Part shown: positions 14,941 through 18,594 of the stretch, piece by piece
How the letters are laid out: each line of letters begins with the position of its first letter
How positions within the stretch are numbered: position 1 is the stretch's first letter
Origin: an uncultured Sphingobium sp.
GTDB lineage: Bacteria; Pseudomonadota; Alphaproteobacteria; Sphingomonadales; Sphingomonadaceae
Assembly (NCBI GenBank): GCA_964512265.1
Contig: CAZEHR010000014.1
Coordinates: 23,765 to 87,764 of the forward strand
Direction: 5' to 3'
Length of the DNA stretch: 64,000 bases
Translations under genes and position numbers: made by a program
Notes under the pieces: model-generated
What the model was told of the DNA's origin: nothing
The model's input: the letters and a program-made list of their open reading frames with translations, nothing else
The model's database searches: none

Positions 14941-14988
14941 GCCGTAGCAGCCTTGCCCGATCGGGGAGCGTCCACTAGCTTCGCACCT

Positions 14989-17900
14989 ATGCCCGCTGCG
15001 CCTGCCCACGCCCCGTTCGTCCCGCTGCGCATCTTTTCCAGCTATACGATGCTCGATGGCGCGATCGAACCTAAGATCATCGCCAAGCAGGCGAAGAAAC
15101 TTGGCTTTCCTGCCGCAGCCCTGACCGATCGCAACGGGCTTTACGCAGCGATGGCCTTTTCCGACGCCTGCAAGGGTGACGGGGTGCAGCCGATCATCGG
15201 CACGATGCTGTGCGTGGCGCGGCCGGGCCGCCCGCCGGGAGCCGCGCCAGTGTACGACTGGCTGGCGCTCTATGCGCAGGGTACGAAAGGCTATGACAAT
15301 CTTTGCGCTCTCGTCTCGATGGCGCATCTCGACCGGCCGATCGAGGAACAGGCGCATGTCGGCCTCGAGGCGCTGGCGGGATTGACCGACGATCTTCTGT
15401 GCCTCACCGCCGGCGGGGAGGGGGCGCTGGCGCGGCTCTACGCAGAGGATCAGGCGCAGGCCGCCGAGGAATATTGCACGGCGCTCGAAGGACTGTTTCC
15501 CGGCAAGCTTTACATCGAAATCTGCCGCCGGTCAGACGCGGTGGAGGACCGGGCCGAGGCGCAGCTTATCGACCTTGCCTATGCGCGCAATCTGCCACTC
15601 GTCGCCACCAACCCCACCTGCTACGCCGAGCCGGATTTCCACGAGGCGCATGATGTGATGCTCTGCATCGCGGAGGGCGCCTATGTGGAAAGCGCGGACC
15701 GGCGCAGGTCATCCGCCGACGCATGGATGAAGCCCGCGCAGGAGATGCAGCGCCTGTTCGAGGATCTGCCCGAGGCGCTCGCCAATACACTGGTAGTCGC
15801 CCAGCGCTGCGCCGTGATGGCACCCAAGCGCAAGCCGATCCTCCCCAGCCTCGCGGGCGATATCGAGGGCGAGGCGCAGATGCTGCGCGAGATGGCGACG
15901 GCGGGGCTGGAGGCGCGACTGGAGAAGATTGCGGCTCAGTCCCCCTCCCGTTTACGGGAGGGGTTAGGGGTGGGCGAATCCGAACTACCCTCGACACCCA
16001 CCCCTCAGCCCCCTCCCGCAGGCGGTAGGGGGGGCGACTGGCGCCAGCCTTATCTCGAAAGACTCGAGTTCGAACTTTCCATCATCATCCAGATGGGCTT
16101 TCCCGGCTATTTCCTGATCGTCGCGGACTTCATCCAGTGGGCAAAGGCGAACAACATACCCGTGGGGCCGGGGCGCGGCTCGGGCGCGGGCAGCGTCGTT
16201 GCATGGGCGCTTACCATTACCGATCTCGATCCGCTGGAGCTCGGCCTGCTGTTCGAACGCTTCCTCAACCCCGAGCGCGTGTCGATGCCGGACTTTGATA
16301 TCGACTTCTGCGAAACGCGGCGCGGCGAAGTGATCCGCTATGTCCAGCAGAAATATGGCGCGGACCATGTGGCGCAGATCATCACCTTCGGAAAGCTCAA
16401 AGCCCGCGCCGTGCTGAAGGACACCGGCCGCGTGCTGCAAATGAGCTATGGCCAGGTGGATCGTCTCGCCAAGCTGGTGCCCAATCACCCGACCGATCCA
16501 TGGACGCTCGAGCGCACGATGAACGGCAGCCAGGAGTTCGTGGCCGAGGTGAAGGCGGACCGGCAGGTCAAACGCCTCGTCGACCTCGCGATGCAGCTGG
16601 AAGGCCTGCCGCGCCACAGCTCCACGCACGCGGCGGGCGTGGTGATCGGCGACCGGCCGCTGAGCCAGCTCGTGCCGCTTTATCGCGATCCGCGCTCTGA
16701 TATGCCGGTGACGCAGTTCGACATGAAATATGTCGAGGCGGCGGGGCTGGTAAAGTTCGACTTTCTGGGCTTGAAGACGCTTTCGGTGCTTCAGCGCGCG
16801 GTGGAGCTGCTGGCCAGGCGCGGGGTGGTGGTCGCTCTCGCCGCCCTGCCCTGGGATGACGAGGCGGTCTATGACCTGCTCCAGCGCGGCGATACGGTGG
16901 GTGTGTTCCAGCTCGAATCGGAGGGCATGAGGAAGACGCTCGCCGCCGTGAAACCCACCAATTTTGGTGACATCATCGCGCTCGTCTCGCTCTATCGCCC
17001 CGGCCCGATGGACAATATCCCCATGTTCGGCCGACGCAAAAACGGCGCGGAGACGATCGAATATCCGCATGCGCTGCTGGAGCCGATCCTCAAGGAAACA
17101 TACGGCATCTTCGTCTATCAGGAGCAGGTGATGCAGGCCGCGCAGATCCTCGCCGGCTATTCGCTGGGCGACGCGGACCTGCTGCGTCGCGCGATGGGCA
17201 AGAAGATCAAGGCGGAGATGGACGCGCAGCGCGACCGCTTCGTCAAGGGTTGTGCCGAGGCGTCGCAGATCCCCAAGGCCAAGGCGAACGAGCTGTTCGA
17301 CTTGATCGACAAGTTCGCGGGCTACGGCTTCAACAAGAGTCACGCGGCGGCCTATGCGCTGCTCGCCTATCATACCGCCTGGCTCAAGGCGCATCACCCG
17401 GCGGAATTCTACGCCGCATCGATGGCTTACGATATCCACCTTACCGACAAGCTGACGGTGTTCGTGGATGACATGCGGCGCACCGGCCTGGCGTGCCTGC
17501 CGCCGGACATTAACCGGGCGGAGGCGGACTTCACGGTCGAACCGGTGGAGGCGCAAGGCGACGACCCGCGCCTGGCCCATGGCGTGCGCTACGCGCTGGG
17601 CGGCCTCAAGGGCGTAGGCGAAAAGGCGATGGAGCAGCTGGTAGAGGAGCGGGAGCGCAACGGCCCGTTCCTCAGCCTCGATGATTTCGCGGACCGGATC
17701 GAGCCGCGCCTGCTCAACCGCCGCCAGCTTGAAAGTCTGGCCGCTGCCGGAGCGTTCGATGGCATTCATGCCGACCGCGCCGGGGTTCATGCCGCCGCAG
17801 AAACCATCCTTTCGGTCGCTGCCAGCGCGCAGGAGGCGCGGGTCAGCGGGCAGGGCGGCCTGTTCGGCGGCGAGGACACGCCGCACGCGGAGGTGCGCGT

Positions 17901-18594
17901 GCCGCCGCACGAACCTTGGCCCACCGCCACGCGCATGGCGCAGGAGAAGGAGGCGTTCGGCTTTTATTTCTCCGCGCATCCGGTCGATCGCTACGCACAT
18001 ATCGCGCAGGCGCGCGGCGCGCGCAGCTTCGGCGCGATCTGCGCTCAGCCCCCCGCCGCCAACAGCGAAGGCCGCGCCACGTCGATGATGGCCGCTCTGG
18101 TCGAGGATGTGCGCTGGCGCGAGACCAAGCGCGGCGCCCGCTATGTCTCCGCCACGTTTTCGGACAGCAGCGGTCAGTTTCAGGCCAGCTGCTTCGATGA
18201 GGCGAGCTGCAAGAAGATCGCCGATCTCGCGGAAGCGGGGGAGTGCGCGCTGCTGAATGTCGAGCTGGAGCGCATGCCGGGCGAAGAGGTACCGCGCGTC
18301 ACCGTGCGCGGCGCGCAGTCGCTGGCGTCAGCAGCAAGTGGGATGCGCCTCGAACTGTGGATCGATGTTGAAGAGCCGACCCCCGTCGCGCAGATCGCGC
18401 AGATCCTTTCCGGCTGCCGGGGCGGTCGCGGGGAGGTGCGCATCCGGGCGCGCGATGCCCAAGGCAGGATTGCGAGCCTGCGATTGGGCCGGGATTTCCA
18501 GATCGATGCCGAAACCATCGAGCGGCTGCGCGCGCTGCCCGGCGTGGCCGGAGCCCAGATGCCCGCGCGCGAGCCGTTGCGGCTGGTGGGCTAG
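14989..18594 (+). CDS. dnaE: DNA polymerase III alpha subunit, carrying an in-frame repeat-derived insertion
   Basis: PHP domain, GPGRGSGAGS, ERVSMPDFDIDF, KFDFLGLKTL, YGFNKSHAAAY. Confidence 0.98.
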   Translation: MPAAPAHAPFVPLRIFSSYTMLDGAIEPKIIAKQAKKLGFPAAALTDRNGLYAAMAFSDACKGDGVQPIIGTMLCVARPGRPPGAAPVYDWLALYAQGTKGYDNLCALVSMAHLDRPIEEQAHVGLEALAGLTDDLLCLTAGGEGALARLYAEDQAQAAEEYCTALEGLFPGKLYIEICRRSDAVEDRAEAQLIDLAYARNLPLVATNPTCYAEPDFHEAHDVMLCIAEGAYVESADRRRSSADAWMKPAQEMQRLFEDLPEALANTLVVAQRCAVMAPKRKPILPSLAGDIEGEAQMLREMATAGLEARLEKIAAQSPSRLREGLGVGESELPSTPTPQPPPAGGRGGDWRQPYLERLEFELSIIIQMGFPGYFLIVADFIQWAKANNIPVGPGRGSGAGSVVAWALTITDLDPLELGLLFERFLNPERVSMPDFDIDFCETRRGEVIRYVQQKYGADHVAQIITFGKLKARAVLKDTGRVLQMSYGQVDRLAKLVPNHPTDPWTLERTMNGSQEFVAEVKADRQVKRLVDLAMQLEGLPRHSSTHAAGVVIGDRPLSQLVPLYRDPRSDMPVTQFDMKYVEAAGLVKFDFLGLKTLSVLQRAVELLARRGVVVALAALPWDDEAVYDLLQRGDTVGVFQLESEGMRKTLAAVKPTNFGDIIALVSLYRPGPMDNIPMFGRRKNGAETIEYPHALLEPILKETYGIFVYQEQVMQAAQILAGYSLGDADLLRRAMGKKIKAEMDAQRDRFVKGCAEASQIPKAKANELFDLIDKFAGYGFNKSHAAAYALLAYHTAWLKAHHPAEFYAASMAYDIHLTDKLTVFVDDMRRTGLACLPPDINRAEADFTVEPVEAQGDDPRLAHGVRYALGGLKGVGEKAMEQLVEERERNGPFLSLDDFADRIEPRLLNRRQLESLAAAGAFDGIHADRAGVHAAAETILSVAASAQEARVSGQGGLFGGEDTPHAEVRVPPHEPWPTATRMAQEKEAFGFYFSAHPVDRYAHIAQARGARSFGAICAQPPAANSEGRATSMMAALVEDVRWRETKRGARYVSATFSDSSGQFQASCFDEASCKKIADLAEAGECALLNVELERMPGEEVPRVTVRGAQSLASAASGMRLELWIDVEEPTPVAQIAQILSGCRGGRGEVRIRARDAQGRIASLRLGRDFQIDAETIERLRALPGVAGAQMPAREPLRLVG
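15940..16035. repeat. CIR/RPE-like palindromic element inside dnaE
   Basis: Two GC-rich hairpins (CCCCTCCCGT-TT-ACGGGAGGGG and CCCCTCCCGC-AG-GCGGTAGGGG) forming a large inverted repeat around a spacer containing GAATC. Confidence 0.8.

Follow-up and report, generated by a model that had tools for sequence, protein, structure and literature searches.

An in-frame palindrome within dnaE

The window analysed here is the whole 64,000-nt stretch of DNA from an uncultured Sphingobium sp. (contig CAZEHR010000014.1), and our subject is a palindromic element that lies in frame within dnaE, the gene for the alpha subunit of the replicative DNA polymerase III (Pol III). The open frame around dnaE extends over 14953-18594, with a likely ATG start at 14986. 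The product scores 1309 bits against the NCBIfam equivalog NF004226 (cut-off 1002), which identifies it as the replicative DnaE1, and stays below threshold for the error-prone DnaE2 model NF004225 (619 vs a cut-off of 939). The Pfam domains PHP, DNA_pol3_alpha, finger, and HHH_6 were found in it, and the database entry that matches it best, 95% identical, is DnaE from Sphingobium sp. DEHP117. The features of the locus are as follows:

14986-18594, + strand: dnaE, replicative DNA polymerase III alpha subunit (DnaE1), 1202 amino acids including the insert; identified from its open reading frame (ORF), NCBIfam, and Pfam.
15940-16035, + strand: inserted palindromic element; its boundaries follow from alignment of the filled site to the S. 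fluviale gene, in which the site is empty.
15942-15974, + strand: left terminal module, an exact match to the pattern of a family described below, the same module being present at at least 120 loci; it consists of the hairpin CCCCTCCCG-TTTA-CGGGAGGGG (15942-15963), TTA, and GGGGTGGG (15967-15974).
15975-15996, + strand: variable core of 22 nt with GAATC at 15976-15980; core sequence and length vary among copies.
15997-16031, + strand: right terminal module, which repeats the left one in inverted orientation, with one substitution relative to the pattern; it consists of CCCACCCC (15997-16004), TCAGC, and the hairpin CCCCTCCCG-CAGG-CGGTAGGGG (16010-16031).

The element is an imperfect palindrome of 96 nt, or 32 codons, with 71% G+C and the sequence TCCCCCTCCCGTTTACGGGAGGGGTTAGGGGTGGGCGAATCCGAACTACCCTCGACACCCACCCCTCAGCCCCCTCCCGCAGGCGGTAGGGGGGGC. 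It starts on a codon boundary, keeps the dnaE frame, and encodes the peptide SPSRLREGLGVGESELPSTPTPQPPPAGGRGG, set directly between its flanks as GLEARLEKIAAQ-[insert]-DWRQPYLERLEFEL; two of its six frames are open. Measured between the module ends it is 90 nt long, and the only mismatch of the right module to the consensus is a T at 16026. The hairpin at 15942-15963 has a perfect 10-bp stem (CCCCTCCCGT-TT-ACGGGAGGGG), while that at 16009-16032 is 91% complementary. The inner arms GGGGTTAGGGGTGGG (15960-15974) and CCCACCCCTCAGCCC (15997-16011) are 87% complementary, and the outer arms (15941-15963 and 16010-16032) 83%. As RNA, the element is predicted to form an extended, imperfect stem with an energy of -72.5 kcal/mol (z about -4.7), a value equalled by none of 200 dinucleotide shuffles, and the 22-mer hairpin had no match in 100 shuffles of the 64-kb window. 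A search of Rfam returned only sub-threshold matches to generic miRNA hairpins, and no curated RNA family fits the element.

An initial annotation, made from the letters of the window, had described a 96-bp GC-rich palindrome in frame within dnaE at these coordinates, and the sequence, the inverted repeats, the ORF, and independent contigs all bear this out; the GAATC lies where it was placed, and the peptide that was quoted is the translation of 15940-16035. The insert was said to stand between GLEARL and YLERLEFEL, which is correct as to order, but it touches neither of them, as IAAQ and DWRQP intervene. Independently assembled contigs from three metagenome runs in two studies run across the insert and both junctions with no differences and no gaps (X1 and X3 over 15600-16290, X5 over 15863-16283), and we therefore consider the insert real and not a product of misassembly. 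Contigs of the source metagenomes also carry the arm elsewhere, and these may belong to other organisms. In run X7, from a groundwater metagenome, word depth at 15940-16032 reached ~2000 over the left arm against 35-100 on the flanks, and one contig links a right arm to a left arm via 13 nt; the arm is thus very abundant in that community, and some elements stand in tandem. Among the RNA runs, no single run held more than 8% of the words of the region. A 671-aa antisense ORF (15985-18000, - strand) also lies within dnaE; it is most likely an artefact of high G+C content and not a gene.

Position of the insert in the polymerase

Aligned with E. coli Pol III alpha (2HNH), the window protein loses register at residue ~308-316 and regains it at 318, the E. 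coli enzyme having a short and differing segment at this position. The palm/NTPase profile PF07733 starts at residue 298 in an insert-free homolog (P0002), and in the window DnaE the match to it is taken up again at residue 350, at profile position 17, which puts the insert at profile position ~16. The PHP domain comprises ~270 residues and is followed by palm, thumb, and fingers (PMC3666897). The insert therefore lies ~40 residues into the palm, near the boundary of the two domains and not on it. The initial annotation, which had spoken of the PHP/palm junction, was thus right about the neighbourhood and wrong about the exact point, as the site is beyond PHP and inside PF07733. For a local picture only, we predicted a model with AlphaFold from residues 1-640 and 31 close homologs (mean predicted local distance difference test score, pLDDT, of 56). 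Residues 321-348 are modeled as coil with pLDDT <50, between helices at 293-318 and 354-370, which makes it plausible, if only weakly so, that a helical hairpin ends here in a disordered loop.

In a survey of ~2000 genomes, the length of DnaE1 was found to be tightly constrained, and inteins are the sole inserts mentioned in Pol III alpha (PMC3919608). We considered an intein or intron for the present insert and dropped the idea: 32 residues are too few for an intein, we saw no splicing motifs among them, and there is free variation between the orthologous inserts.

Filled and empty sites among Sphingobium relatives

Comparison with orthologs, which the initial annotation had proposed as a check, came out in favor of an insertion, as most Sphingobium DnaE proteins do without the segment. 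In a protein alignment of 120 Sphingobium-group sequences, almost all read ARLEK-AGITGEEA-RQPYLERL, with an eight-residue turn at the site, whereas the window DnaE reads ARLEK-IAAQ-[32 aa]-DW-RQPYLERL. The event can be placed to the nucleotide in a DNA alignment of the window and five orthologs (L004-L008). S. fluviale (L007) and a related metagenome-assembled genome (MAG; L008) have the short turn and no insert, and the empty ATC AAA GCG CAG / GAA AAG (IKAQ/EK) stands against the filled ATT GCG GCT CAG / [96 nt] / GAC TGG (IAAQ/../DW). From this comparison it follows that the insertion took place between two codons, exactly at 15940-16035. No target-site duplication is visible when the filled site is set against the empty one of S. 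fluviale.

An insert occupies the site in four dnaE lineages, namely the window, DEHP117 (L004), P0005/L005, and P0006/L006, and insert-bearing dnaE genes with window-type junctions were found in other assemblies, one of which is an isolate genome. The inserts of the window, L005, and L006 have junctions in common (IAxxS ... DWRQPY) and recognizably related cores, and we therefore attribute them to a single event. They have since drifted apart. L006 has one extra base at its start, so that its left arm is read as SPLPLAGGAGGG where the window has SPSRLREGLGVG, and the common frame is regained in the core; from the sequences, this difference is a compensated frameshift. L005 has largely lost the left hairpin. 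The loop regions of the four insert-bearing genes measure 210, 201, 222, and 210 nt, each a multiple of 3. Hairpin z-scores are -4.6 in the window and -5.2 in L006, -2.0 in L004, and -1.6 in L005, compared with -9.6 and -8.0 for two intergenic copies of the family, so that two of the four lineages (L004 and L005) show a decayed palindrome. The mRNA hairpin envisaged in the initial annotation is a strong predicted fold in the window strain, but in view of this decay a functional role for it is not supported.

The closest relative offers a further state of the site. Outside the loop, the dnaE gene of DEHP117 is 92.8% identical to that of the window at the DNA level, with a third-position divergence of 19.7%; its loop segment (L004:3950-4045) has the length of the window insert and is only about half identical to it. 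Its arms read CCCCCTCTCCCC...GGGGTGAGGGG and CCCTCACCC...GGGAGAGGG, and its layout of a hairpin, TTA/NNN, and GGGGTGAGGGG parallels that of the window module, but the motifs differ (CCCCTCTCCCC and GGGTGAGGG vs CCCCTCCCG and GGGGTGGG in the window). The motif CCCCTCTCCCC...GGGGTGAGGGG aligns with repeats of Azospirillum, Variovorax, a Sphingomonas, and E. coli, and not with the window family; such repeats occur in 34 Azospirillum plasmid records and at a median of 16 places per E. coli genome. The E. coli repeat is, going by copy number, probably BoxC. For BoxC, 22-32 copies have been listed (PMC2267715). Judged by sequence, then, the closest relative carries a palindrome of a different family, of the same length and at the same dnaE site. 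An orthologous segment of equal length without palindromic DNA had been named in advance as one finding that would tell against an insertion; the DEHP117 segment is equal in length but palindromic, and the idea stands. Its left junction (KLAHS vs IAAHS) still looks homologous, and for this reason we infer that the DEHP117 state arose by replacement or conversion of the older insert and not by a fresh hit.

Taken together, the different reading frame in L006, the decayed hairpins in L004 and L005, and the different palindrome in DEHP117 indicate that neither peptide nor hairpin is conserved. Selection on the insert is accordingly limited to the reading frame, with the peptide, the RNA structure, and the GANTC not kept. 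Unrelated insertions of 12 to ~46 residues that do not resemble palindromes were also seen in the same DnaE loop (P0023, P0024, P0026, P0027, P0109, P0019, P0012, and P0118; for example, IAALHDGDGASDLDDDALRARYAEYF). The loop is thus length-variable in general among Sphingobium lineages.

A dispersed family of palindromes in Sphingomonadales

Similar DNA was found by blastn of plasmids and chromids in unannotated spacers of Sphingobium, Novosphingobium, Qipengyuania, and Sphingopyxis, one example being the fnrL-ccoN spacer of Sphingobium chromids. These copies share a module composed of the hairpin CCCCTCCCG-N4-CGGGAGGGG, a gap of N3-5, and GGGGTGGG, which stands at both ends, inverted, around a variable core, so that the family has terminal inverted repeats of ~33 nt. 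A scan for the exact pattern with one genome per species placed the module at at least 120 loci. Among the 120 matches listed, 104 are labelled as Sphingomonadales genera or MAGs, 14 as generic proteobacterial, and 2 as Chloroflexota MAG contigs. Presence of the Sphingomonadales module in the latter (L013 and L115, with the labels Dehalococcoidia and Chloroflexota) may reflect binning contamination or lateral transfer. In the plasmid database, the module is present in 22 records (21 of them Sphingomonadales) at up to 10 places per replicon, and none of the matches listed lies under an annotated gene. The family thus has copies in many related genomes.

With mismatches allowed, the loci comprise 68 full elements of 81-148 nt (arm, core, inverted arm) and 76 single modules. 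The window element belongs to this family, with an exact left module, a right module one substitution away, and a length within the range. Eleven members (L011, L027, L042, L066, L078, L084, L089, L097, L100, L117, and L123) form a subfamily of 112-127 nt with the conserved core CTTGSCAGC...GCTAGTCGCAGCGGGGTGGGC, which extends over Aurantiacibacter, Sphingopyxis, Erythrobacter, Qipengyuania, and others and includes an in-frame copy in GlyS. Because such core subfamilies are common to several genera, the unit of arm, core, and arm appears to propagate as a whole. Just outside the module the flanks show a conserved YY...RR, so that the ends read YY-CCCCTCCCG. Target-site duplications are absent from 62 of the 68 full copies, the longest direct repeat being 2 nt, and GANTC is present in 8 of the 68. 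We found no described sphingomonad element matching this one in the literature, whether as a MITE (a miniature transposable element with inverted repeats), a repetitive extragenic palindrome (REP), or a REP doublet (REPIN), and the family appears to be new.

In-frame copies in other housekeeping genes

We then asked how often the family enters genes, using 66 full copies taken without regard to genes. A copy was counted as intragenic if a stop-free frame ran through the element with at least 50 codons on each side and if the third-position G+C signature pointed to the same frame on both sides; Pfam was then applied. At least eight of the 66 copies lie in frame within conserved genes, and the remainder look intergenic:

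CarA: separating the CPSase domain from the GATase domain.
RNase R: within the RNB domain.
BchB/ChlB: separating the two domains of the protein.
MetH: within the activation domain.
Mfd, GlyS, IleS, and an ABC ATPase: one in-frame copy each.

All eight have a coding signal in one frame on both sides, with Pfam domains that flank or span the insert, and the flexible SucB linker contains a single module, or half copy. Most elements of the family are open in 3-5 of the six frames, and the peptides that they encode correspond to the module read in three ways, as PLPLAGGAGGG, PSRLREGxGVG, and PPASGRG.

The MetH site deserves separate mention. Across Sphingomonadales, many different inserts occupy a beta-turn of this protein, DDVxIH-LxE-EERHVRLPF (L069:3968-4066; P0130-P0239), several of them with PLPLAGG, PSRxREG, or SPLQGEGLGEG signatures, and some belong to the window family and some to others. 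As this turn holds several independent inserts, certain loops seem to collect such elements, and the MetH loop looks like a hot spot.

A probable tolerated mobile palindrome and its alternatives

We believe that the dnaE insert is a tolerated, non-autonomous selfish palindromic element in a loop, permissive to insertion, at the palm's N-terminal edge, and we would put the probability of this reading at roughly 85%. A mobile palindrome made of two inverted ~33-nt modules, each with its own hairpin, around a short core would have landed between two dnaE codons, in the stretch that specifies a short turn between two helices. As 96 nt equal 3 x 32 and the host frame has no stop, translation would run through the insert, and DnaE would gain a 32-residue loop rich in Pro, Gly, Ser, and Arg. 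On the model, this loop is probably disordered and solvent exposed, and it is presumably harmless. Selfish palindromes of this kind would survive in those genes where the loop is permissive, the frame is open, and the length is 3n. Movement may have followed a route without target duplication, either by an HUH/Y1 transposase similar to the REP-associated tyrosine transposases (RAYTs) or those of IS200/IS605 or by recombination. Our best guess for the mover is a single-strand HUH-type transposase, the alternative being recombination or repair-templated copying.

Several observations weigh against this reading. The 64-kb window has a single copy, and no further one came to light with blastn-short, with a scan for perfect hairpins, or when the 22-mer was searched at 3 mismatches. 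A cognate transposase was not found, although the search was crude (an HxH...YxxNP regular expression on six-frame ORFs of 128 loci, ~0.9 Mb). The AlphaFold model is poor overall, and so the disordered surface loop for which the initial annotation had proposed to test is present as low-confidence coil but argued for only weakly. In a neighbor-joining tree of DnaE built without the loop, the insert-bearing proteins fall into three separate clades, each beside insert-free sisters. The simplest account of this patchy spread may be that lineages swapped a short piece of dnaE by homologous recombination, as repeated precise loss is unlikely given that the insert-free state matches the ancestral turn; the local signal of recombination is nevertheless weak (87.4% vs 81.6% identity to L006, p = 0.03 uncorrected). 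The persistence of the insert in several lineages might also indicate some use.

This last point leads to the strongest of the alternatives, that the insert has been co-opted, with the loop serving DnaE in partner binding or regulation, or with the mRNA hairpin or GANTC methylation tuning dnaE expression with the cell cycle. At least four dnaE lineages retain the insert with the frame intact, and the hairpin is very stable in the window strain. GANTC is also scarce in the window, with 77 sites seen across its whole length vs ~212 expected from base composition, so that each site could matter. Such scarcity is, however, to be expected in an alphaproteobacterium with CcrM and adds no special weight to the dnaE site. 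Co-option is hard to reconcile with a peptide that differs by a compensated frameshift in L006 relative to the window and is replaced by an unrelated sequence in DEHP117, with a hairpin that has decayed in L004 and L005, and with a GANTC that is missing from L005, L006, and 60 of the 68 family copies. Close relatives, including S. fluviale, do without the insert entirely. We consider co-option improbable.

A local origin would make the segment a product of slippage or hairpin-templated synthesis in a hypervariable loop, its likeness to other palindromes being convergence of G+C-rich, low-complexity sequence. The unrelated insertions in the same DnaE loop of other Sphingobium would fit this, as would the lack of a target-site duplication and of a detected transposase. 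Convergence would nevertheless have to produce a 33-nt left module identical to the family pattern, which recurs exactly at at least 120 unrelated loci, together with a right module that has a single mismatch, and the chance expectation for the 22-mer is zero. The architecture of the window element equals that of other copies as well, and core subfamilies are conserved across genera. This explanation seems to us even less credible than co-option. An assembly artefact or chimera can be set aside almost entirely: palindromic repeats are classic sites of misassembly and the metagenome-derived sequence apparently comes from a bioreactor, but the three independently assembled runs from two studies are identical across both junctions, other assemblies, an isolate genome among them, contain orthologous inserts bounded by the same junctions, and the reading frame is intact.

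Implications

Palindromic repeats that lie in frame within housekeeping genes were at first taken for a trait peculiar to Rickettsia. As late as 2024, a review called it no more than “conceivable” that proteins of other prokaryotes evolve by a comparable route (PMC10969869). The dnaE insert and its relatives extend this “coding palindrome” phenomenon to bacteria that are free-living, GC-rich, cultivable, and genetically tractable, and to the catalytic subunit of the replicase. The phenomenon is therefore of a known kind, while the family is apparently undescribed. It is intriguing to consider that coding palindromes are order-wide, with hairpin-ended families that repeatedly enter the same permissive loops (DnaE, MetH, aminoacyl-tRNA synthetases, CarA, and RNase R), replace one another, and spread by recombination, an idea to which we would give even odds. 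If it is true, Sphingomonadales would hold a free-living, GC-rich counterpart of the Rickettsia palindromic elements (RPEs), large enough for the study of how mobile DNA seeds new protein segments. Among close Sphingobium relatives, filled, empty, and differently filled alleles already exist in nature, and these allow tests of the cost of insertion, the movement of the element, and protein loops as sinks of mobile DNA. For annotation, the family explains the recurrent PLPLAGGAGGG, PSRLREG, and PPASGRG peptides in sphingomonad proteins.

Comparison with known systems

The initial annotation had linked the element to CcrM methylation and to the CIR repeats of Caulobacter. CIR is likewise a palindromic repeat of an alphaproteobacterium, and the window copy does have a central GANTC, but GAATC lies in the variable core, GANTC is no feature of the family, and the window copy is intragenic. 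As the site is conserved neither in the orthologous inserts nor in the family, we rejected this identity.

MITEs such as Correia/NEMIS, ERIC, the Coxiella QMITE, and those of Anabaena resemble the 81-148-nt elements described here in having terminal inverted repeats and being non-autonomous, and some are also known as in-frame intragenic fusions. No parent insertion sequence with matching ends was identified for our family, however, and we rejected a classical MITE on the absence of target-site duplications, both in 62 of the 68 copies and in the filled and empty dnaE sites. The BoxC-like repeats of E. coli enter the comparison through the DEHP117 element, whose layout at the same dnaE site is parallel to the window module and whose motif differs from that of the window family.

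RPEs are palindromic repeats found in frame within unrelated housekeeping genes, and the host protein apparently stays compatible with function (PMC10969869). They share with our family short dispersed palindromes, in-frame entry into unrelated conserved genes, an added peptide, and alphaproteobacterial hosts. The initial annotation's view of an RPE-like, peptide-creating repeat is well supported in this sense, as the family is dispersed, mostly intergenic, and in frame in other housekeeping genes. The hosts differ, those of RPEs being AT-rich and obligately intracellular and those here free-living with genomes of ~64% G+C. The element itself has nested hairpins in each terminal module, and ~12% of the sampled copies are intragenic here, compared with nearly half in some RPE families. 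Sequence homology to RPEs would be implausible because of the 71% G+C of the element and its restriction to Sphingomonadales.

REP doublets, known as REPINs or bacterial interspersed mosaic elements (BIMEs), are likewise built on a G+C-rich imperfect palindrome of ~22 nt, of which an inverted pair around a spacer forms a larger hairpin, and their copies are mostly extragenic and without target-site duplication. REP super-families are defined by a GTAG or CGTC head (PMC3733652), whereas the present element has neither and ends in YY-CCCCTCCCG. No RAYT gene was found near the copies in a crude motif search of 128 loci, the cores here are long and very variable, and a sizeable minority of copies lies within genes and is translated. 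In its structure, the REP doublet is nonetheless the closest known system to the palindrome in dnaE.

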